The position numbers were made by a program, and so were the translations under genes. From UHGV virus genome UHGV-1456322: a stretch of DNA of 43,927 nt; one strand, 5' to 3'. Of the stretch, positions 58-33,837 are shown one piece after another. The notes beneath the pieces were generated by a model. That model ran no database searches and was not told where the DNA came from. It saw only the letters and a program-made list of their open reading frames with translations. This DNA is from a virus. Position 1 is the stretch's first letter, and each line of letters opens with the position of its first letter.

Positions 58-390
58 TTACTGTTTGTTAACAGGCTCGAACACGTTACACTCAACAGTT
101 CTAGCTGCTGCGTTAAACGTAAAACCCCGAAGACCCATAACATCCACCAGATATCGGCACAAATCAAACACGTGCTTAGGTTCCCGGGTGTGGGTGCCGC
201 TTACTACGTACTGCTCAACCCTAACAGGTACAGCCTGCTTTAACATGGCCTCTGAGATGATGCGCAGAGCATTGGCTGTACTGTCCCCAGTGCAGCGTTT
301 GTGCCACACCCCTGTGCCGTACTCTACACCACCTTGGGTTATGGCCTCCATGCGGGTCATACCGGTTATAATGTTACGGATATCTTTCAT
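58..390 (-). CDS. hypothetical protein (~110 aa) downstream of capsid gene
   Basis: Minus ORF in track (58..405, TTG start); in-frame ATG at 388-390 preceded by GAGGAAA RBS; no catalytic motif recognised. Confidence 0.45.
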   Translation of the reverse strand: MKDIRNIITGMTRMEAITQGGVEYGTGVWHKRCTGDSTANALRIISEAMLKQAVPVRVEQYVVSGTHTREPKHVFDLCRYLVDVMGLRGFTFNAAARTVECNVFEPVNKQ

Positions 391-2535: not shown

Positions 2536-4131
2536 TTAACTTGGTAATAAGCCCAGCTGCTTACCTGCTACTGTCGGGTCTGCTGCTGTCAAGCCCTGGA
2601 GTTGGTCCTGCGCCACACCCGCGGATACATCGGCAGACGCATCCTGAACCCGTTGCTTCTGCTGCAGCTGCTCTTCGGTGTACATGAACGGCTCGCTGAC
2701 GATGCCGTAGGCGTCGAAGTACCAATCTACGCACGCATCTTTGTTGAAGCGCGGAGTAATCTGCTCAAGCACCGGGATAGCCAGCTGCATGGATTGTGCC
2801 GCCTCTAACAGCTTGTCCGCCGCCGCGGCTTTAGCCAGTGCAGAAGTACCCACCGTAACGTTGATGTTCACTACACCTTCGCTGAGATAAAGCTTAAAGC
2901 GAGGATACACCAGTGCAGTATACAGGTACGCCAGCTTACGCAGCCAGGTGTCGCTCAGGATACTGAACCCACCGCCCATAGCGGCTTCCGCCTCTTTGGC
3001 ATTCTGGCGAATCTCGTAAGCCGTGACACGCTCACCTTGCCGTGAGTTACCGGTGTACATAAACGCACGAGACAGTTTCTGTTCGAGCATCTGAATGTTG
3101 CTGGCAATCCACTGAATCTTCTGGGCAGAGCCGCCCTCGTAAGCAGTGACTGGGGACTTGTTGTTCCCGTTGGAACCACCACCACCCACCTGCACAGCCT
3201 CGCCCGTCTCCGACGTTGCGAATTCGTCCACGTCCAGCCCGGAGCTTGCGTCAACCAGCGGAATTAACCGCGCAGACTCAACTTCGTAGTTAGTTAACGC
3301 TTCTGACAGCACTGATAATCTAGCGAAGTCCCCGGCGTAGTCCTCTACCAAGCCGCGTCCGTAGTGCTCACCGCTAACAAGGTTCCACACCAGCACGTTG
3401 TATGGAAGCTCCAGCTCAGGATAGGTGCTGCTGTCCCCAATGTGGTGTCCGTCTGCTTCTTGGTACACCTCGTAGCTTACTACCTCTACGCCTTCCTCTG
3501 TCCGCTTAACCTTGCGACAAGCGGCAGTGTAGATATCAACGTCGCCGTATGGGTCTTTGTCACGGTAGAAGGTGTTCTGGAAACTCTCTGGCAGGTCCTG
3601 GACGCTTGCGCGCTCTCTGATAATGAGTCGCAGGACGTTCCCGCTGCCATCCCTTCGAACGGTAAAGTTACGGACTGAGTAGACGATGGATTTACCTGTC
3701 CGCTCATCAATATACTCCAACGCGTTACCTGTAACCAGCAGCAGCTTCACAGCTTGCAACTTCGCAGCATAACCGTCTTTCTCAAATACTTTCTGTGACG
3801 CTGTGTTCTCGACCTCGGCCAGCTTAGATTCTGCTGTAGCTGCACTACCCAGCGAACTAATGAACTCGTCCAGGTCCGAACTCTTGGAGAACCGGAAGAA
3901 GCTAGCGCCTTGCGGGAACAGTGCGCCTACAATCTTAGTGGCTGCAGTGTTGACCAGCTGCGCTCCGGTGCTCTGGTAGTCACGCTCTAGCGGTCTGCGT
4001 CTACCGTCCAGGGAATCGTCCCGGGTAAAGATAGTGCTGAGTGTCCACTGCGCGAACTTCTCAGAGGCATCCAAGACGCCCGCGTCCTGGTCCTTCTTAA
4101 AGAGTTCTGCTAATGTTGCTTTTTGTTCCAA
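2536..4131 (-). CDS. portal (head-tail connector) protein (T7 gp8-like)
   Basis: 531 aa; contains GERVTAYEIR-type segment recalled from T7 gp8 (GERVTAEEIR); position upstream of scaffold/capsid. Confidence 0.8.
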   Translation of the reverse strand: MEQKATLAELFKKDQDAGVLDASEKFAQWTLSTIFTRDDSLDGRRRPLERDYQSTGAQLVNTAATKIVGALFPQGASFFRFSKSSDLDEFISSLGSAATAESKLAEVENTASQKVFEKDGYAAKLQAVKLLLVTGNALEYIDERTGKSIVYSVRNFTVRRDGSGNVLRLIIRERASVQDLPESFQNTFYRDKDPYGDVDIYTAACRKVKRTEEGVEVVSYEVYQEADGHHIGDSSTYPELELPYNVLVWNLVSGEHYGRGLVEDYAGDFARLSVLSEALTNYEVESARLIPLVDASSGLDVDEFATSETGEAVQVGGGGSNGNNKSPVTAYEGGSAQKIQWIASNIQMLEQKLSRAFMYTGNSRQGERVTAYEIRQNAKEAEAAMGGGFSILSDTWLRKLAYLYTALVYPRFKLYLSEGVVNINVTVGTSALAKAAAADKLLEAAQSMQLAIPVLEQITPRFNKDACVDWYFDAYGIVSEPFMYTEEQLQQKQRVQDASADVSAGVAQDQLQGLTAADPTVAGKQLGLLPS

Positions 4132-26074: not shown

Positions 26075-26945
26075 ACTCCTTATATATTATAGGGATAGCC
26101 ACTAGGGATAGCACTGTGCTGACACTGGCTGTAGCCAATACTAGCCACGTCTAGCCAATACTATCTAATACTACATAAAGCAGAACGTAGTGACGTAACG
26201 TAAGTGAAGGAACGTAGTGATGCGGTGACTATGTAGTTATGGCAGCCTACTACGTAGGCACAGGGCCATACTAGTGAGTGCCTAGTAGGGACTAGTAAGG
26301 ACTAGTATTAAGTAGTGTATATAGTGCCCTAAAACCCTCCTACTCCTGTAACATCATTTCATAATAGCTTTCGAATGAAAGTAAGAGCAAAGGGATAGCG
26401 CTGGATAGTGCGGTGTGGTGGATGTGCGCCCTAGTGGGGAGCGCGCAGCGTAGCACATAATTAGCACAATGTAAAGCACTAAGGATAGCCAGTGGATAGC
26501 CTAGTGCACACTCGGGATAGCACCAGGCATACCCTATGGCCCCACTGCGCGGGCACTAGACAGGCACTAGGCAGACCCACTGAGGCGCACAAAATAAGCA
26601 AGGCAGAGCACGCCCCTATGGCCCACAGAGAGCGCACAGAGAGCGCACAGGAAGCGCCCTAGTGAACGCACAGTGATAGCCATAGGGTAGCACTGGCAAT
26701 AGCCTTAGAGCGCAGCACAGGCCCGCTGAGGCGCTCTAGTGCGCACTAGCAGGCCCCACCAGTGCCCCCCCCCCTAAATTGACGCTAGGCACCCCCCTAT
26801 GGGGGCAATTGGGCGCGTTGAGGGTGAGGGAGGGGCTCGCGTGAGTCTAATAAATTTCAGGTCCAGGTATAGACGCGCACCCCAGCAGCACCCCAGCAGT
26901 GCCCCGGGATACCGTAGAGATACCCCAGGGAAGCTCTAGAGCTAC
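26075..26945. repeat. non-coding repeat-rich region, candidate genome terminus / terminal-repeat region
   Basis: About 870 bp without ORFs; many distinct 2-copy tandem short repeats (AGGGATAGCCACT, TAGCCAATACTA, ACGTAGTGA, GGACTAGTA, GGATAGCC x3, CACAGAGAGCG, CACCCCAGCAG), C10 tract, GC palindromes. Confidence 0.5.
26337..26357 (-). promoter_or_regulatory. candidate phage RNAP promoter copy (GATGTTACAGGAGTAGGAGG)
   Basis: Exact 16-mer shared with 4843-4858 and 36777-36792. Confidence 0.4.
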
Positions 26946-28901
26946 TTAGAGATACACCTCCCAGGCTACCTGGGATACGTCCGCTGCGTTACTGCTCCTA
27001 ATCACGAAGCTGTTTAGGTCCGGATTAGGTGTAGGCACATCCTGGTTCTGAGCTACGCCAGTAACCGTCAAGGCCCCAGCACTAGAGGGAAAGGTCAACC
27101 GCGTCAACTTAACCTCAGACACCCACTTGAAGGAGTTAGCTACGCTGCCAAAGTTTCCGCGTACACGGGCGTTGACTGTAGCCTCACCAGCCACCAGGGT
27201 TGCCACTCCACGGATACCCGTGTCATCCAGTAAGTTCATGGACATGCGCGGGGGCGTAGGTTGAACGGCGTAGCCGCTCAGCAATGCCCAGAACAAGCCG
27301 TGACCGGTCATGTCGTTATTGGACATAGATACCAGGGTAGGGTCAATGCCCATAGTCCCGTGGAAGTACACAGCTCTCCCGGTACCGTCGTAGCGCATGC
27401 TCACGCCATCAATCTCCAGGGATGTCTGCGCTGTCTCAGCTACGTCCTTAGTAACGAAGATGTGAGAGCTGGAGTTGCGGGTGTACCGACCACCCTTAAC
27501 ACGGCCCCCGTTGATTCGCACACCATTCTGGCTACCGTGAGCCTCGCAGTCATAAACGTAGCCACCGCCGTACGAGCAGTTAAAGCCAGAGCGTACGTTG
27601 TCATAAGCTAGGCACTCCCTATAGATAGGGAAGGCTACACCGGTGTTGGAGGCGAACCCGTCCATAGCTGCACGGTAAGCTCGACAGTTCAAGTACTCTA
27701 CCCCGTTAGTGCGCGCTTGGAACCCATCGTCAGCACTGTCGTACGAAACGCATCGAACGAACTTCACACGCTTACCAATGTCATGAGTATCAAACCCAGC
27801 TTGGGTTGTGTTGTAGGCTTCGCAGTTAACGCCTAAGAACTCGATAGGCTCTCCCCACTTGTCCCCGTCTGCGGTGCTCTGCCAGTTCAGAGAGATTGCG
27901 TGGCGTACGTCCATGGCGTGGATATCGTGTACTTCCGTGTCCTCTGAGCAGCCGAGCACTTCTACCCCATACCATCCGATGTTGTAGAAGTACGTACCCT
28001 TAACAGTACTATCTACGCAGTTATTGAACTTGATAGCACTACGCCCTTCTATATCAGAAGCCCCGGGGCGTTTGTTGCCAATAATAACCCCGTCCTGGAT
28101 GTGCAAGTCCGCGGCAAAGTTGGCAGAGATACCGATAGTAAAGAACCGGTTCAAATCGTCGTAGCCGAACTCGTTGATGTACGGGGATACTAAGGTTACG
28201 TTCTCCACCATTGTCGGGATACCTACTTCCGCGGCATCAGACAGGTAGTAGTTATAGTGCAGCGCTTTATCCAGCCGAATACTGGTGACGCCACCGGAGG
28301 TGCTAACCCCAACCACTTTCCTAATCTGGGAAATCTTTACACCGTACGTGTTAGGACCACCATCACACAGCTTGTTAGAGCGAAGATACAAGTACGTACC
28401 TTTTACCGCAGACAAAGCCCCGGCAGCCACCGTAATGACTTTGCTGCCCGCCGCGGCATCCGCTGCTAACGGTACGAACACCGAGGGTGCCGAGCCGATA
28501 ATATTAAGCACTTGACGTGCAACCGCAGCATCCGGTAGGATTCTTCCGGTATCGGTAAACTCTAGCGTAGAGTTGCTTTTGATGTTGAGCACACTCGTGG
28601 CCTGCAGGACCGTGTCCACAACCAGGTGCCTATTAGGTGCGCTCATGAACGTTACTATGCCCGCCCAATTGCTGAACCAGGAGCTGTATGCCGGACCCAC
28701 GAATTTACGGAGTAGATACCCACCAGGTACAGCAAACACAGTTCCGTTATCCACTACCGACGCGGCAGTAGTAAAGGTGAAGTCCCCACCGGCGCTGCCC
28801 AGCAGGCTAATCTTGTCCCGTACCTGAAAGTTTGGATATGCTACCATGCTCGCCAAGTCGGAGAATACCCGCTCTGGAGCTACTAATCTAATTAACGCCA
28901 T
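26946..28901 (-). CDS. tailspike protein, probable polysaccharide depolymerase (beta-helix)
   Basis: 651 aa; no T7 gp17-like N-terminal anchor; repetitive Gly/Asn/Val-rich segments typical of right-handed beta-helix tailspikes; last gene before genome-end region. Confidence 0.8.
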   Translation of the reverse strand: MALIRLVAPERVFSDLASMVAYPNFQVRDKISLLGSAGGDFTFTTAASVVDNGTVFAVPGGYLLRKFVGPAYSSWFSNWAGIVTFMSAPNRHLVVDTVLQATSVLNIKSNSTLEFTDTGRILPDAAVARQVLNIIGSAPSVFVPLAADAAAGSKVITVAAGALSAVKGTYLYLRSNKLCDGGPNTYGVKISQIRKVVGVSTSGGVTSIRLDKALHYNYYLSDAAEVGIPTMVENVTLVSPYINEFGYDDLNRFFTIGISANFAADLHIQDGVIIGNKRPGASDIEGRSAIKFNNCVDSTVKGTYFYNIGWYGVEVLGCSEDTEVHDIHAMDVRHAISLNWQSTADGDKWGEPIEFLGVNCEAYNTTQAGFDTHDIGKRVKFVRCVSYDSADDGFQARTNGVEYLNCRAYRAAMDGFASNTGVAFPIYRECLAYDNVRSGFNCSYGGGYVYDCEAHGSQNGVRINGGRVKGGRYTRNSSSHIFVTKDVAETAQTSLEIDGVSMRYDGTGRAVYFHGTMGIDPTLVSMSNNDMTGHGLFWALLSGYAVQPTPPRMSMNLLDDTGIRGVATLVAGEATVNARVRGNFGSVANSFKWVSEVKLTRLTFPSSAGALTVTGVAQNQDVPTPNPDLNSFVIRSSNAADVSQVAWEVYL

Positions 28902-29510
28902 TTATCCTCCGGTCTTAGTAAGAGCTGCCACTGCAGCATTTACATTCTTATACTGATTCCCAACGGCCTTGCTCTGCCACTGTCTGCGCTCCCATAGGCC
29001 CCAGCACACTTTATTGCGCTGCCCGTTAATATACTGAGAGCAGTCGAAGGTCCAGCGGTTGCTGCCCTTGTACACCCAACCGATGCCCGGGGATTTCTGC
29101 TGATACTTGCTAATATAGCGCCAGTCCAGTACGGCCTTTCCAGCTTCTGCGTAATTCAGGCTTTTGAGGTGCCGCTTCACAGCACTGCCGTTGAAGCCAG
29201 CTACGCCTACGTTATAAATGAAGTCTACAGACCCAACCAGAGCTACGTCAGAGAGCTGCATAGGAAGCCCGTCAAGGGCCTTTGCATGTGCCCCTGCTGA
29301 TTCTATCAGTTGCTTCTGACAATCGCTCAGCGTGGCTCTCTGGCCCATCTTGACGCCCTTTGTCTCCCCGTAGCAGATTGTAGGGACACCGGCACTATCC
29401 TTATAGGCGGTAAGGCTCAATCCCTCGTTGTGCTGAACCACCCCAGTAATAGCACCACCCAGCATAGTGGCCCCCGTGAGGGCCGCAATAACCTTAGTCC
29501 TTAAACTCAT
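28902..29510 (-). CDS. SAR endolysin (GH24 lysozyme with signal-anchor-release domain)
   Basis: 202 aa; N-terminal Gly/Ala-rich weakly hydrophobic segment VIAALTGATMLGGAITGVV; catalytic E-x8-D-x5-T (NEGLSLTAYKDSAGVPT). Confidence 0.85.
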   Translation of the reverse strand: MSLRTKVIAALTGATMLGGAITGVVQHNEGLSLTAYKDSAGVPTICYGETKGVKMGQRATLSDCQKQLIESAGAHAKALDGLPMQLSDVALVGSVDFIYNVGVAGFNGSAVKRHLKSLNYAEAGKAVLDWRYISKYQQKSPGIGWVYKGSNRWTFDCSQYINGQRNKVCWGLWERRQWQSKAVGNQYKNVNAAVAALTKTGG

Positions 29511-29745
29511 ATTTAATAGTCCCCTTACGCGCCTGCTCTTCTAGGAGCTTGAATGTACGTCGCTTGTAATACGCATTCCACGCCAGGGTTAGCACTGCGC
29601 ACACAGTCGCAGTGATGAAGCTGATAGTGCTCCAGTTCCAGCTCATTAACTCTGCCAACCAACCTCCTGATACCGTAGCACCGGTAACTGCTGCACCTGC
29701 CCGGGTAGCGAGGTCTGCTCCAACCATGTCTCCCACCTTAATCAT
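29494..29745 (-). CDS. holin (pinholin-like, two TM segments)
   Basis: 83 aa; weak TM1 then strong TM2 WSTISFITATVCAVLTLAW, charged C-terminus; overlaps endolysin start. Confidence 0.6.
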   Translation of the reverse strand: MIKVGDMVGADLATRAGAAVTGATVSGGWLAELMSWNWSTISFITATVCAVLTLAWNAYYKRRTFKLLEEQARKGTIKYEFKD

Positions 29746-30142
29746 CCTGCTGCCCCTTCTTCCTGAACAGCTTACGAATCACCAGAATGACCACTAGGAA
29801 GACCAGAGGAATGCTGGCCCCAGCTAATCCGGCGAGGATAAGACTGTAACTATCATTGTTAACCACCTGCAGGCGTTCTGCCTGGATTGTCCCGGTGCTA
29901 ATAGTTTGCACCTGCTTCTTACTGGACGTGTCCAAAGTGCCTACGTTAGAATCCTGTACATCAGTTTTGTTGGTGGTGCTGGAGTCCACCTTGTTATTCA
30001 AGCCAACGGTTTGTTTGGTGTTCTCGGCACCAACCTGAGCAGATACATCCGGCTTAGAACCAACTAATCCGGTGAGTGCAGAGGTCGCCGAGCAACCAGT
30101 CAGAGTAACCGCGAGCAGCAACCCAGCGACCAGTTTACGCAT
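29738..30142 (-). CDS. unimolecular spanin (u-spanin)-like lipoprotein with C-terminal TM
   Basis: 134 aa; lipoprotein signal MRKLVAGLLLAVTLTGC (lipobox LTGC), S/T/N/Q/V-rich middle, C-terminal TM plus basic tail; immediately upstream of holin. Confidence 0.55.
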   Translation of the reverse strand: MRKLVAGLLLAVTLTGCSATSALTGLVGSKPDVSAQVGAENTKQTVGLNNKVDSSTTNKTDVQDSNVGTLDTSSKKQVQTISTGTIQAERLQVVNNDSYSLILAGLAGASIPLVFLVVILVIRKLFRKKGQQDD

Positions 30143-30335: not shown

Positions 30336-30710
30336 TTATTCTGCCGCATCAGTGGCGGCTACGAATGCACTCTGCAGTGCAGTGAACGAATCATCAAACG
30401 CTGTACCGGAGCCCTCACCGAGCGGCATACCTGTACCTGTAGGGGCAACGTAGCCGGTCTTAGAGAGCTGTGACAGCATGCTGAACAGGCGCGCCTGCAG
30501 CGTACCGTCATCCTTAAAGGCTGTACCGGCACGGGTAGCCGTATAGCCCTGGGACTGCATGTACGTGAAGAACGCGTTCAGCTTAGTCAGGGCAGTCGTA
30601 CCTACGAAGCCTACGTTGTAGTCCGGCTGCACCTGCTTCTCCAGGTTCTGGCACGTGCCCACAATGGCGTACTGGACGTCCGCAGTTTTAGCTGCGATGA
30701 TTGATGCCAT
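30336..30710 (-). CDS. hypothetical protein (124 aa)
   Basis: Start overlaps terminase large subunit stop. Confidence 0.45.
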   Translation of the reverse strand: MASIIAAKTADVQYAIVGTCQNLEKQVQPDYNVGFVGTTALTKLNAFFTYMQSQGYTATRAGTAFKDDGTLQARLFSMLSQLSKTGYVAPTGTGMPLGEGSGTAFDDSFTALQSAFVAATDAAE

Positions 30711-32566
30711 TATCTTCTTCCTCTATGTTGTTTACCTCTGCCCCGGTTATGTAGCCGAGCAGCTACACCACGAAAGCCCTTAGACACTTTGCTCTGTGCC
30801 CAATCCAGTGGGTTCTCAATGAAGGCCCGAGCCATCTTCTCAGACTCACGCTCCGCCACCACTTTCTCATCTTCCACCAGATGCCCATTCAGCGTAGCCA
30901 CCATCATGGCGATTGCGTCTGCCCGGTCATCCTTCGCAAGGCTACCGCGGTCGTACGTGATACCGGACAACTGCGCGAACGCAGAGTACAGCCAACGCCT
31001 ATCGCGGGAATATGCCATACAGGTACTGATATCGTCGTGAATAGCACGCTCATGCACTACCAGGCGATGGCGACGAGTAACTGGGCTGATTGTGTCGATG
31101 ATACGACGCTCTTTCTGCGTGCAGTTATTCAGGTCCCTTACACCGATACCGGCGAGACGCCGCTCACGTAATCGGTTCAGGATAAGCATAGACACGGTAC
31201 CGTGCCCCATATTGCTCTCCACCACCATATCCGGGATGTCCAACTCTACACACAGGTCAATCAGTTTATCAATGTTCTCTTCGCTGATACCTCCTTGGAA
31301 TCCGCCTACGGAGAATAGGTGAATGTACGAGTTCGCAGCGCCTCCAGCAGCGTAGGACACTTCGTCCCCACCACAACCAGCCGGGTCCACTACCAGTACC
31401 TTATGCTGGTACGGAAGGTGCATATCCCCGTAGAATGCCGGGAAGTACATCTGCTGGCCCATAATCCCTTCATGCTCGTGCTGGTACAGATACCGGCGGT
31501 CCGCGATGTAGGAGAACGTCTCCGGGGAGGAATCCTGGCTGCCAGAGTAAACCAGCACATCCGATAGCTTGATGCGCGTACGCATTTGGTCGGACAGGGT
31601 GGTGTCGAGCATGTACTGCAGCTGGAAGCCTTCCGGACCAAAGTCCAGCTCCTTCTCAATCAGCGCATCCTCGTCATAGCGCCCGGTGTCCGTGCTCTCG
31701 CCTAGCGTCCCGTCGACTCCGAAGCCGGTGCGTTTATAGCCGCGCTCAATAAGCTCCAGGATATAAGGAGCAAGTGTACTTCCATATCGCTCTTCCATTT
31801 CAACAGACGGAACGCGCCCGGGCCACACGCGGACCTCGAAGCCACGTCCCGGCAGGGTTTTATAGATACTGTCCTTGGTCTGTGGTGTACCCAGGTACAG
31901 CGTATCCCCGTGCGTACAGATAGCCGCGAAGTCTTTAGAAATCATCAGCAGCTGCTCACGCTGGGTTTGCGTTAAACCATTCTTGGTGGTCTCGATATCA
32001 TCCGGAATCAGCAGGTCCGCGCGCTTACCCTGCAGGGATGCAGTGATACCTACACAGGCTACGCTGGCGGATTTCTCCAGCGGCTTAAGGTCACAGTGTA
32101 CGTCATAACCTTCGAATGAAGTACGGTCCCCACGAGTAGGATCAGCCTTCAAATAGCACAGCAGCGGCCATGTCTCAATCATACGAATGATTAAGTTCGC
32201 TACGTCGGACGCCTGCTTCTCTGCACCGGACACAATCAGGATACGGCAGGATTGGTCCTGGATGAGCCTCCAGACGGCGTACAGTGCAGCTAGTGTAGAC
32301 TTAGCCTCACCACGCTGCGCGGCCACCATGCGCTTCCGGGGGCCCTTCTGCATGTACTCTGCAATGTCGGCCTGCATGTCCGTGAGCGTAAAGCCCAGGA
32401 ACCGCATACCGATGTACGCGAATTCCCGGAAGTCGCTTAGTGCCGCGGCCATCATCACCGCGATATCCTCGCGCTCCTCTTTGGGAATACTGCGCGGATT
32501 CGCACTATAACCAGTAAGTTTCTGGTTGAGCATGCGCAGTCTTCGCGCAGTCTTCACCGATACCAT
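30710..32566 (-). CDS. terminase large subunit (T7 gp19-like)
   Basis: 618 aa; ATPase P-loop-like RGEAKST, overall pattern of T7-type DNA maturase B as recalled. Confidence 0.9.
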   Translation of the reverse strand: MVSVKTARRLRMLNQKLTGYSANPRSIPKEEREDIAVMMAAALSDFREFAYIGMRFLGFTLTDMQADIAEYMQKGPRKRMVAAQRGEAKSTLAALYAVWRLIQDQSCRILIVSGAEKQASDVANLIIRMIETWPLLCYLKADPTRGDRTSFEGYDVHCDLKPLEKSASVACVGITASLQGKRADLLIPDDIETTKNGLTQTQREQLLMISKDFAAICTHGDTLYLGTPQTKDSIYKTLPGRGFEVRVWPGRVPSVEMEERYGSTLAPYILELIERGYKRTGFGVDGTLGESTDTGRYDEDALIEKELDFGPEGFQLQYMLDTTLSDQMRTRIKLSDVLVYSGSQDSSPETFSYIADRRYLYQHEHEGIMGQQMYFPAFYGDMHLPYQHKVLVVDPAGCGGDEVSYAAGGAANSYIHLFSVGGFQGGISEENIDKLIDLCVELDIPDMVVESNMGHGTVSMLILNRLRERRLAGIGVRDLNNCTQKERRIIDTISPVTRRHRLVVHERAIHDDISTCMAYSRDRRWLYSAFAQLSGITYDRGSLAKDDRADAIAMMVATLNGHLVEDEKVVAERESEKMARAFIENPLDWAQSKVSKGFRGVAARLHNRGRGKQHRGRR

Positions 32567-32868
32567 TAGACAATTCCTTCTAGTAAGTCCTCAGAGTCTG
32601 AACCACCAACTTTATTTAGAATCTCTTGCTTACGCGCCTCTCTGCGCGCCACTAGCTCGTCATCGAATTCGTCACGAAGGTCCTGCATCTCCTCGGAATC
32701 TGCGTCCGCGGTGATGTCGTTATCCTTCAAGAACTTAGCAATGACCGATTTATCTGCTGCGGGGAGCGGCACCTCATCTTCCTTAGACTGCTTGATTTCT
32801 TCAAGCAAGGCCTCGGTGAACATACGGTGCAGCTCCGAGAGGCGACTGCGTTTAGCTGCCCCTGCCAT
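32566..32868 (-). CDS. terminase small subunit (T7 gp18-like), putative
   Basis: 100 aa acidic helical protein immediately upstream of and overlapping terminase large subunit; AGGAG RBS; assignment by synteny. Confidence 0.55.
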   Translation of the reverse strand: MAGAAKRSRLSELHRMFTEALLEEIKQSKEDEVPLPAADKSVIAKFLKDNDITADADSEEMQDLRDEFDDELVARREARKQEILNKVGGSDSEDLLEGIV

Positions 32869-32880
32869 GCTCTTCTCCTA

Positions 32881-33837
32881 TCATGTAGTCAGCACCCCAC
32901 TGGTGCGTAGCGCTGCCAGCAGTGCGTTAAATTTAGCCACTACATCCCCGGTGCCGGTTGCGTTGGATACAGCTGCAGCCTTGTCCAGATACGCCAAATC
33001 TCCCAAAGAGTCGGCTAAGTAATCTAGGGATGCTTGCGTAGCAAAACCGTCCCCCGCAGTTACATCAACCCCCAGCCGAGCGGCTACAATAGTGCCTGCA
33101 GGTAAGGTCTCTGCAAACAGTATGGTATTATCTACAATATCGAAACTGTAGCCACGAATCTGCCCAACCCCGTTAACCTCTACTACAGCCTTAGTGAAGG
33201 CTAAGCCTGGAGTTACTTCGTCCGTATCAGTGGCCAGGACCGTGCTCCACGGGTAGCTTACCGTCTCTACACCGCTTATAAAGGTGTTCTCCAAGGCGGA
33301 GGTACGGGCACTCAGCGCGTCATCTGCTGCCTTCCGTGTAACGGCTTCGGCCTGTACAGCGGATACCCACCCCGAATGCTCTGCGTCAATGCGCTGTCCT
33401 AGTAAGGCATCGGCGGCATCTACATAAGCCTTAGTGGCGGCATCTTGGGCACTGATTGGGTTGGCTAAGTTGGTTATCCGGTACCCGTTCATGCTGATAG
33501 CGCCATAGAATCCGGGTATAGCCCGGCCCTCCACTAGTTCCTGCGCAAGGTGCAGGAACTGCGTGTTTTGGGAGTCTACGTTTACCTCAATGAACGGAGA
33601 ACCACTGGCGAACTCAATGTACAGATACTCTCGCTCTGTCTTACGGATTAGTAGCACAGTAGTGCTTGCCGCTAAGGCCGAATTGAGCCTGATATTAGTA
33701 GAGCTGGTCCAGGTGTACCCAGTGGTTTCCACACCGTCTAGGTATACATGAATATAGGACTTGTCCAAATATTCAATATCGCACTGGATATCCTGGGTAC
33801 CAGCTGGCTTGATTTGTTCTTGCCAGCTGTATGCCAT
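32881..33837 (-). CDS. tail fiber / tailspike adaptor protein with T7 gp17-like N-terminal domain
   Basis: 318 aa; segment GYRITNLANPISAQDAATKAYVD resembles the T7 gp17 N-terminal region (RRIVNLANAVDDRDAVPFGQL) as recalled; too short for a receptor-binding fiber. Confidence 0.75.
   Translation of the reverse strand: MAYSWQEQIKPAGTQDIQCDIEYLDKSYIHVYLDGVETTGYTWTSSTNIRLNSALAASTTVLLIRKTEREYLYIEFASGSPFIEVNVDSQNTQFLHLAQELVEGRAIPGFYGAISMNGYRITNLANPISAQDAATKAYVDAADALLGQRIDAEHSGWVSAVQAEAVTRKAADDALSARTSALENTFISGVETVSYPWSTVLATDTDEVTPGLAFTKAVVEVNGVGQIRGYSFDIVDNTILFAETLPAGTIVAARLGVDVTAGDGFATQASLDYLADSLGDLAYLDKAAAVSNATGTGDVVAKFNALLAALRTSGVLTT

Follow-up and report, generated by a model that had tools for sequence, protein, structure and literature searches.

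Our analysis describes a compact lysis cassette in a complete genome of the genus Drulisvirus, the KP34-like podophages of Klebsiella. Taken as a whole, the sequence evidence makes it very likely that this locus is a late-expressed Drulisvirus lysis cassette, which would act through a pinholin, a SAR endolysin and a unimolecular spanin (u-spanin). The window, by which we mean the whole stretch of 43,927 nucleotides analysed (virus genome UHGV-1456322), shares 94-97.5% identity with many deposited phages. The cassette occupies positions 30142..28902 on the minus strand and consists of three overlapping genes running from spanin through holin to endolysin; it lies at the right end of the genome, in one transcriptional direction. 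An earlier sequence-only reading of this DNA had proposed three open reading frames, each overlapping the next, in the order lipoprotein with a C-terminal transmembrane segment, holin and SAR endolysin. The frames and their overlaps of 8 nt and 17 nt were found where that reading had placed them, and the order is borne out by the open reading frames, the PHROG and Pfam matches and homology. The genes and their overlaps are as follows.

30142..29738, minus strand: spanin gene, 134 aa, from its open reading frame and homology
29745..29494, minus strand: holin gene, 83 aa, from PF04971, PHROG 20 and S21 alignments
29510..28902, minus strand: endolysin gene, 202 aa, a GH24 T4-type lysozyme (PF00959)
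29738-29745, minus strand: overlap of the spanin and holin genes, 8 nt, ATGATTAA; identical overlap in KpV41
29494-29510, minus strand: overlap of the holin and endolysin genes, 17 nt, ATGAGTTTAAGGACTAA; identical overlap in KpV41

The interval from terminase to spanin holds two conserved open reading frames, of 124 aa and 60 aa, the shorter of which overlaps the spanin start by a single nucleotide (TAATG), while at the other end of the cassette the ATG of the tailspike directly follows the endolysin stop codon (TAAATG). A scan for sigma-70 promoters and terminators around the cassette gave counts no different from those in shuffled sequence. Chance open reading frames are excluded by the PHROG and Pfam scores and by the conservation of a 1701-bp region among phage records, which is found at 90-97.5% identity in 210 of the 250 matching records, nearly all of them Klebsiella Drulisvirus. 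Some 240 phage records contain this cassette, frequently with the annotation "U-spanin", and the gene boundaries and overlaps are identical in those relatives whose annotation was examined.

The cassette is thus real and was correctly interpreted by the earlier reading, and it is already known from two publications. Eriksson et al. (2015; PMC4411677) described the order spanin, holin, SAR endolysin as a genus-defining trait of the 'Kp34likevirus', and Kongari et al. (2018; PMC6139136, Table 5) placed KP34, F19 and NTUH-K2044-K1-1 in the u-spanin family of T1 gp11. The trait is published, defines the genus and is annotated in GenBank hundreds of times, so that as a discovery the cassette is of little consequence. 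What we add only refines the annotation: a holin that looks like a two-helix phage 21-type protein without a dual start, an endolysin assigned to the R21 type of control, and a cassette of mosaic make-up. A literature search for experiments on Drulisvirus lysis proteins found none. The very abundant Drulisvirus homologue could nevertheless serve as a convenient second u-spanin model for genetics and phage-therapy engineering, because the mechanism of u-spanins is little understood and the T1 spanin is strongly bactericidal in Klebsiella; expression of T1 gp11 kills both E. coli and Klebsiella (PMC10954549).

Holin type and membrane topology

The 83-aa protein matches PHROG 20 'holin' (E 5e-17), and its score of 26.6 bits against Pfam PF04971 (Phage_holin_2_1) is marginal relative to the gathering cut-off of 26.0; close relatives of the holin also carry a precomputed match to PF04971. 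This match, the alignment with S21 of phage 21 and the partnership with a SAR endolysin all speak for the pinholin label given by the earlier reading, although it is the least secure of the three labels in the cassette, and the size of the hole that a holin makes (about 2 nm for class II pinholins of the S68 type, which depolarise the membrane and let no proteins through) is not readable from sequence. Two membrane segments are predicted.

29644..29712, minus strand: candidate TMD1 of the holin, about residues 12-34, weakly hydrophobic and rich in Gly/Ala/Thr/Ser (SAR-like)
29569..29634, minus strand: TMD2 of the holin, about residues 38-59, from hydropathy, with S42-A46-A50 on one face and followed by a charged C-terminal tail

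The number of helices is the point on which our reading departs from the published one. For these 83-aa holins Eriksson et al. (2015; PMC4411677) reported a single TMD by TOPCONS and assigned them to class III, and in our hydropathy analysis only residues 37-60 pass the standard Kyte-Doolittle threshold. If the holin were indeed a single-TMD (class III-like) or other large-hole protein beside a SAR endolysin, the marginal PF04971 score would come as no surprise, and the u-spanin would pose no obstacle, as u-spanins work with either type of holin (Kongari et al., 2018; PMC6139136). We nonetheless consider this alternative unlikely. The candidate TMD1 is only weakly hydrophobic and contains R15 and E32, but at residues 16-34 its hydrophobicity still exceeds that of the TMD1 established for S21 (mean KD 0.98 against 0.22), it is richer in Gly, Ala, Ser and Thr (63% against 48%), and in a MAFFT alignment the two segments share the same columns, with GG-WLAE in the holin facing AG-WLDQ in S21. 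The reference used for S21 was verified as 100% identical to the phage 21 record OL657228. A BLASTP alignment of the two proteins is narrower, covering only the last residues of TMD1, from W29, and all of TMD2. In TMD2, the small residues S42, A46 and A50 are invariant or nearly so, and the face that they form falls in the same columns as the G40-S44-G48 zipper of S21. The AlphaFold2 (AF2) model, of low confidence (mean pLDDT 64.7), also shows a two-helix hairpin, a helix-turn-helix broken at W36-N37 with helices at residues 4-25 and 28-35, both of low confidence, and at 38-73. Nor would a large hole be needed here; a SAR endolysin does not require one. From this comparison, the holin looks like a two-helix pinholin of the phage 21 type rather than a single-TMD class III holin.

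The resemblance to phage 21 stops short of the dual start. A second initiation codon at Met7, preceded by a good Shine-Dalgarno sequence (AAGGTGG), raised the prospect of a holin/antiholin pair starting at Met1 and Met7, but this candidate was rejected because Met7 is not conserved: relatives carry Val, Ile, Asn or a gap at this position, and only Met1 is conserved. A speculative possibility is that the two conserved frames of 124 aa and 60 aa supply further regulation of lysis in place of such an antiholin.

Endolysin anchor and control type

The product of the third gene matches Pfam Phage_lysozyme PF00959 (E 1e-20) and PHROG 7 'endolysin' (E 6e-35), and its best solved relatives are the SAR lysozymes of phage 21 and DLP12. 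The best PDB match is the phage 21 lysozyme 3HDE (E 2.3e-9), with an alignment that begins at residue 2 and includes the anchor.

29436..29501, minus strand: predicted SAR anchor of the endolysin, with R4 and K6 followed by VIAALTGATMLGGAITGVV (residues 7-25), free of Cys
29379..29426, minus strand: catalytic motif E29-x8-D38-x5-T44, from the translation, aligned to EGVSYIPYKDIVGVWTVC of 3HDE

The 19-residue anchor has a mean KD of 1.82 and consists to 58% of Gly, Ala, Ser and Thr, as compared to 1.98 and 65% in R21. The alignment with 3HDE through the anchor, this composition and the basic residues that precede the anchor bear out the SAR endolysin of the earlier reading. A basic n-region followed by a 19-residue h-region would equally suit an ordinary cleavable Sec signal peptide, in which case the enzyme would be secreted and held inactive by other means, and sequence alone cannot strictly separate a cleavable signal from a SAR anchor. 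We consider this very unlikely, as inspection by eye finds no small-x-small (AxA-type) site after the h-region, which runs instead into VVQHNEG; moreover, the abundance of Gly, Ala, Ser and Thr in the h-region is that of known SAR domains, and the segment aligns with a SAR domain that remains uncleaved in the R21 crystal structure.

Given a SAR anchor, its content of cysteine bears on how the enzyme would be controlled. The endolysin has Cys at positions 46, 64, 157 and 169 and none in residues 1-45. Disulfide caging of the P1 Lyz type was rejected, since no Cys lies inside the SAR domain, and the absence of Cys from the anchor indicates the refolding type of control known from R21. The translated sequence thus groups the endolysin with R21 and not with P1 Lyz.

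Unimolecular spanin

The first gene encodes a 134-aa protein that the earlier reading had recognised as having u-spanin architecture, with an LTGC lipobox and a C-terminal TM segment in one polypeptide. This architecture is confirmed by the LPAM_1 match, by hydropathy and by homology to T1 gp11.

30092..30142, minus strand: predicted lipoprotein signal peptide, lipobox LTGC, with Cys17 as the acylated residue and Ser18 at +2 (Pfam LPAM_1)
29846..30091, minus strand: predicted periplasmic domain of the spanin, residues 18-99, polar, from composition and conserved columns
29777..29845, minus strand: predicted C-terminal TM helix of the spanin, about residues 100-122, from hydropathy and AF2, followed by the basic tail RKLFRKKGQQDD

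The LPAM_1 match covers residues 1-18, and the lipobox was found by regular expression and hydropathy; Cys17 is the sole Cys in the protein. In the C-terminal TMD the best 17-residue window (106-122) has a mean KD of 2.89, and the tail RKLFRKK lies on its C-terminal side. Residues 18-99 contain no Cys and are 45% Ser, Thr, Asn and Gln; they include the conserved motif AQVGAENTKQxVG, with conserved columns at Q36, G38, N41, K43, Q44 and G47. These features recur across the family. The lipobox Cys is invariant in all 38 u-spanin family representatives, none of which has Asp at +2; 36 of the 38 have both the C-terminal TMD and the basic tail, and these 36 lack periplasmic Cys, save for one Cys in one representative (P0201). 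P0156 and P0179 are isolated frameshifted copies. Apparent truncation of the spanins of BUCT712 and KMI5 (84% tblastn coverage) proved to be a masking artefact of the low-complexity TMD, and both proteins are intact. An AF2 model of the monomer, built from a 35-sequence alignment, is confident only for the signal and TMD helices, with a helix at 98-129 (pLDDT 73-89); most of the periplasmic domain (residues 32-82) has pLDDT below 50, and no secondary structure is predicted over residues 27-97. From its length and composition, the linker of roughly 82 residues would measure about 27-29 nm if extended.

The protein matches PHROG 1804 'Rz-like spanin' (E 6e-52), and an identical protein is on record as 'putative spanin [Klebsiella phage VLC5]'. 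Alignment with T1 gp11 gives 42% identity across 125 of the 134 residues (E 3e-26), which puts the protein within the T1 family as delimited by Kongari et al. (2018; PMC6139136), whose threshold is 40% identity or more to a family member across 40% or more of the length. By this sequence comparison the 134-aa protein is a true homologue of T1 gp11, beyond mere architectural likeness. As T1 gp11 complements an RzRz1 defect in lambda (Kongari et al., 2018; PMC6139136), homology points to a spanin function for the Drulisvirus protein as well. A separate Rz/Rz1 pair elsewhere in the genome, which the earlier reading had named among the observations that would overturn it, was sought and did not appear: when all start codons in the genome were scanned, the coding strand yielded no second lipoprotein signal, and the annotation of the fully annotated relative KpV41 lists no second spanin.

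Some sources give the 134-aa protein generic lipoprotein names, such as 'outer membrane lipoprotein SlyB' (JGI), and it might in principle be a lipoprotein with a role outside lysis, such as superinfection exclusion or the blocking of receptors, as for T5 Llp or Cor; this is exceedingly improbable, given that it is clearly homologous over its full length to T1 gp11, a spanin proven by complementation, that its gene overlaps that of the holin inside the lysis cassette, and that the genome has no alternative spanin candidate. It also has a C-terminal TMD, which to our knowledge is not a feature of exclusion lipoproteins.

A possible link between u-spanins and o-spanins was seen in the NCBI lipoprotein family NF037952 ('spanin2', 'spanin2_3'), whose name follows NCBI's usage for o-spanins. 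Its model is matched by 21 of 35 u-spanin family representatives, with a best E of 2e-8, and by the window spanin at E 1e-4, although the mature domain of the latter alone reaches only E 0.09; P2 LysC belongs to another family, NF038368. Provided that the members of NF037952 really are o-spanins that act with an i-spanin, these matches would connect the two classes by sequence for the first time, and would support an origin of u-spanins from an o-spanin by acquisition of a C-terminal TMD, a derivation that Kongari et al. (2018; PMC6139136) called speculative for lack of detectable similarity. In three representatives, however, the end of the NF037952 profile aligns into the u-spanin TMD, so that what the model captures is probably a set of short proteins resembling u-spanins and not o-spanins. 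That the T1 gp11-type u-spanins, the window protein included, share ancestry with the 'spanin2' lipoprotein family strikes us as improbable on these matches.

Proposed lysis mechanism and related cassettes

Our analysis, coupled with what is known of the homologous systems, suggests a model for lysis by this cassette. The three genes overlap and run in the same direction, and their translation is probably coupled. The spanin would be exported and acylated at Cys17, and its N-terminus would be moved to the outer membrane by the Lol system, a sorting predicted because the residue at +2 is Ser, while the C-terminal helix would remain anchored in the inner membrane and the basic tail would face the cytoplasm. 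The polar, cysteine-free linker, when extended, should be long enough to pass through the murein and connect the outer membrane to the inner. By homology to phage 21 R, the lysozyme would be exported by its weak N-terminal anchor and held, tethered and inactive, in the inner membrane, where the holin would accumulate as a helical hairpin, by homology to phage 21 S68. At a set time the weak first helix of the holin may exit the bilayer, as in S68, allowing the second helix to form small pores that depolarise the membrane. Depolarisation would then free the endolysin anchor, and the enzyme would refold and degrade the murein. We propose that the last step is the action of the spanin, by analogy with the model published for T1 gp11; Kongari et al. 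(2018; PMC6139136) noted that there were no physiological or biochemical data on the mechanism of u-spanins.

A comparison of the window with KP34 and other Drulisvirus phages (PMC4411677) shows the same genes in the same order and of the same sizes, including the 83-aa holin, at the same position after the terminase genes. Nothing substantive differs from the KP34 cassette, of which the window is another member, and the difference is one of interpretation, two helices being favoured here for the holin where one TMD was reported.

The T1 gp11 protein is of nearly the same length (133 aa, against 134 aa here) and shares with the homologous Drulisvirus spanin the lipobox L(T/S)GC, Ser at +2, the AQVGAENTKQ motif, the lack of periplasmic Cys, the C-terminal TMD and the basic tail. 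The spanin gene is the last of the T1 cassette (holin 13, endolysin 12, spanin 11), whereas it is the first in Drulisvirus. The T1 holin gp13 belongs to a different family: PF04971 does not match it, and its similarity is weak and confined to a 35-residue stretch over TMD2. The kinship of the two endolysins goes no further than GH24 in general (30% identity). The idea that the whole cassette is a rearranged T1 cassette was rejected, as only the spanin is specifically T1-like and the holin and endolysin are not; the cassette is instead a mosaic, in which a T1-like spanin is combined with a different holin family and gene order.

The other two components find their counterparts in phage 21. The holin S21 68 shares the Pfam family of the Drulisvirus holin, and both TMD1 and TMD2 can be aligned, but the Drulisvirus protein has no conserved dual-start antiholin and carries a longer charged C-terminal tail. 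The endolysin and R21 align over the SAR anchor and onwards to include the catalytic triad; the Drulisvirus enzyme exceeds R21 by about 37 aa and has additional sequence beyond residue 135. The spanin of phage 21 is a two-component Rz/Rz1.

The related podophage lineage of phiKMV (Briers et al., 2011, cited in PMC4411677) uses the same logic of pinholin and SAR endolysin. Unlike the KP34-type cassette, that of phiKMV has the order holin, endolysin, Rz/Rz1 with an embedded two-component spanin, and Eriksson et al. (2015; PMC4411677) put the similarity of the two cassettes at about 30% over 22% coverage. The order seen in the window, u-spanin followed by holin and SAR endolysin, recurs in Phimunavirus (Pectobacterium phiM1-like phages; Buttimer et al., 2018; PMC6115819), a different genus with a different host, which has only 7-9% nucleotide identity with KP34 across the whole genome (PMC6115819); the Phimunavirus spanins are detectable homologues with about 45-50% identity by tblastn. 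Matches were also found in 21 'Campylobacter phage' records, which were considered as a potential connection to phages with two-component spanins; the one sampled (A113, MG065680) has a genome of roughly 50 kb and a spanin match at the level of T1-like phages, and from it all 21 are taken to be T1-like.

Lysis genes at the right end of a Drulisvirus genome

Every gene in the lysis part of the window lies on the minus strand, and the interval 28902-30142, where the sequence-only reading had placed a unimolecular spanin (u-spanin), a pinholin and a SAR endolysin in overlapping genes, is the exact frame of the three lysis genes. The overlaps claimed there amount to 8 nt between spanin and holin (ATGATTAA) and 17 nt between holin and endolysin; the stop of the 60-aa ORF also overlaps the spanin start, as TAATG. 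The two conserved ORFs that separate the large terminase gene from the spanin gene both lack a transmembrane domain (TMD) and a Pfam match.

Genes of the lysis region in order of transcription, in window coordinates
32566..30710, minus strand: large terminase, 618 aa
30710..30336, minus strand: conserved ORF (phrog_7128), 124 aa
30324..30142, minus strand: conserved ORF (phrog_7375), 60 aa
30142..29738, minus strand: spanin (lipoprotein), 134 aa
29745..29494, minus strand: holin, 83 aa
29510..28902, minus strand: endolysin (lysozyme), 202 aa
28901..26946, minus strand: tailspike, 651 aa

Many Klebsiella Drulisvirus phages (Autographiviridae, Slopekvirinae) carry this 1.7-kb region at 94-97.5% identity, with coverage of at least 80% in 239 of 250 matching records, many of which label the first gene 'Rz-like spanin' or 'U-spanin'. 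Comparison with the annotated cassettes of relatives shows that KpV41 and RCIP0036 share the gene boundaries and overlaps. The 214-bp terminal direct repeat of KpV41 maps to window ~26640-26830; the stretch ~26140-26946 is a gap lacking ORFs of at least 60 aa. From the position of this repeat we conclude that the window is an entire Drulisvirus genome in reverse-complemented, circularly permuted form, including one copy of the repeat, and thus that the cassette and tailspike are the last genes, at the right genome end. The whole window yielded no tRNA genes. Homology to KpV41 ends at 32868, and the tail-fibre gene (32881-33837, minus strand) encodes 318 aa, compared with 858 aa in KpV41 gp46; the window phage is accordingly organised in the KP34-like manner, with a short anchor fibre and a single 651-aa tailspike (26946-28901). 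This difference from KpV41 is a typical receptor-binding-protein module swap.

The spanin and its family

The lipobox and C-terminal transmembrane anchor that had been read into one polypeptide are both recovered: residues 1-17 form a lipoprotein signal in which MRK and a hydrophobic core precede the lipobox LTGC, a stretch matched by Pfam LPAM_1, and residues ~100-122 form a strongly hydrophobic helix with RKLFRKK after it. The protein has no cysteine other than Cys17; with Ser18 at position +2, it is predicted to be sent to the outer membrane by the Lol system. The protein matches PHROG 1804 ('Rz-like spanin') end to end (E 6e-52), and direct comparison with T1 gene 11, taken from NC_005833, gives 42% identity over 125 residues (E 3e-26). 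The window protein, earlier likened to T1 gp11 for its architecture, is thus more than an analogue of that prototype u-spanin: it is a homologue. The periplasmic segment of ~82 residues is 45% Ser/Thr/Asn/Gln and has a computed reach of ~27-29 nm when fully extended, which would suffice to bridge the envelope. An AlphaFold2 monomer model built on a 35-sequence alignment places confident helices at the signal peptide and TMD only, leaving the periplasmic domain without a predicted fold.

A HMMER search run exhaustively over 1.84 billion cluster representatives yielded a spanin family of only 49 representatives, 37 of which were aligned with the window protein. The lipobox Cys, C-terminal TMD and basic tail are all present in 36 of these 38 sequences, and none has Asp at +2. 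The two exceptions in architecture, the public metagenome proteins P0156 and P0179, are isolated copies in which a frameshift deletes the C-terminal TMD, most likely through assembly errors. A periplasmic Cys occurs in two sequences, P0179 and a further representative, P0201, whose single such Cys lies 2 residues past the lipobox Cys. The most conserved part of the family is the motif AQVGAENTKQxVG just after the anchor. Apparent truncated spanins in phages BUCT712 and KMI5 proved to be a tblastn masking artefact, both proteins being intact. The spanin is also matched by 21 records labelled 'Campylobacter phage'; the one listed, A113 (MG065680, ~50 kb), matches at the level of T1-like enterobacterial phages, and the host label on this and similar records looks odd.

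A link to o-spanins was suggested by the NCBIfam model NF037952 ('spanin2_3', 'bacteriophage spanin2 family protein'), whose matches are weak and in every case far short of its cut-off of 80 bits: the window spanin is hit at E 1.3e-4, as are 21 of 35 T1-family representatives with a best E of 2e-8. The mature domain alone matches at E 0.09, and T1 gp11 itself has no match. Since the alignment of the profile's end extends into the TMD of three u-spanin representatives (P0161, P0171 and P0199), the model may itself be one of short u-spanin-like proteins and not of o-spanins, and the o-spanin link is possible but unlikely.

A separate Rz/Rz1 pair would speak against a u-spanin. A lipoprotein-signal scan of every start codon in six frames across the whole window found only the spanin on the coding strand; the only other match (3860..3979, plus strand) has a poor signal and lies antisense within a large gene. 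The complete KpV41 annotation lists no other spanin, and we conclude that the genome has no separate Rz/Rz1 pair.

Holin and SAR endolysin

Pfam assigns the holin to Phage_holin_2_1, the phage 21 S family, at 26.6 bits, barely above the cut-off of 26, and PHROG 20 ('holin') matches it at 5e-17. Eriksson et al. (2015; PMC4411677) described the 83-aa holins of these phages as class III with one TMD. In alignment with the phage 21 holin S21 (the S21 sequence used having first been confirmed, at 100% identity, against phage 21 record OL657228), the GG-WLAE segment and TMD2 of the window holin share columns with TMD1 and TMD2 of S21. Residues 16-34, the candidate TMD1 (mean Kyte-Doolittle value 0.98, 63% G/A/S/T), are no less hydrophobic than the proven TMD1 of S21, which exits the membrane (0.22, 48%). 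S42, A46 and A50, in the columns of S21 G40, S44 and G48, are invariant or nearly so, and a low-confidence AlphaFold2 model has helices at 4-25, 28-35 and 38-73 with a break at W36-N37. In the light of these features we read the holin more readily as a class II pinholin with two helices than as the one-TMD protein of the earlier description. A second in-frame ATG (Met7; 29725-29745, minus strand) follows a strong Shine-Dalgarno-like AAGGTGG, as in a dual-start holin/antiholin-like pair; relatives have Val, Ile or Asn in place of Met7, or lack the residue, which makes this start probably non-functional and an antiholin of the S71 type unlikely.

The endolysin matches Pfam Phage_lysozyme (E 1e-20), and among solved structures its best relatives are the SAR lysozyme of phage 21 (3HDE/3HDF) and DLP12 RrrD (4ZPU). 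As the alignment begins at residue 2, it includes the anchor (R4, K6, then VIAALTGATMLGGAITGVV; 58% G/A/S/T), in keeping with the SAR endolysin originally proposed. E29-x8-D38-x5-T44 aligns to the catalytic motif of R21, the phage 21 enzyme. The anchor contains no cysteine, and control should accordingly work by refolding, as in R21, instead of by the disulfide caging of P1 Lyz. Compared with R21 the protein is ~37 residues longer, the extra sequence lying past residue 135. Residues 136-202 (28902-29105) hold a Trp/Cys-containing insertion (C157, C169) and then a conserved C-terminal GLWERR; the insertion is beyond the Pfam match (27-135) and within that to PHROG 7 (16-199).

Lysis model and published cassettes

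The three proteins would most likely act in the standard order of pinholin, SAR endolysin and spanin, each functional step being drawn from homology to phage 21 S and R and T1 gp11, with the sequence features themselves observed. T1 gp11 complements lambda RzRz1, and the fusion mechanism is a proposal for every u-spanin (Kongari 2018, PMC6139136); when expressed, T1 gp11 kills E. coli and Klebsiella (PMC10954549).

The cassette is real, and the sequence-only interpretation is correct and already published. Eriksson et al. described it with an 83-residue holin and SAR endolysin, contrasted it with phiKMV and used it as a genus criterion; the same order occurs in Phimunavirus (Buttimer et al. 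2018, PMC6115819), and the paper on the Drulisvirus fHe-Kpn01 repeats the description. The 28-member T1 gp11 family of Kongari 2018 lists KP34, F19, NTUH-K2044-K1-1 and LIMElight, with the u-spanin paired with a pinholin and SAR endolysin in almost all of its phages. Our additions to this picture are small. The cassette is a mosaic of a T1-type spanin and a phage 21-type holin, and the T1 holin, gp13, falls outside the phage 21 S family; the spanin gene stands first in the cassette, in contrast to its last position in T1.
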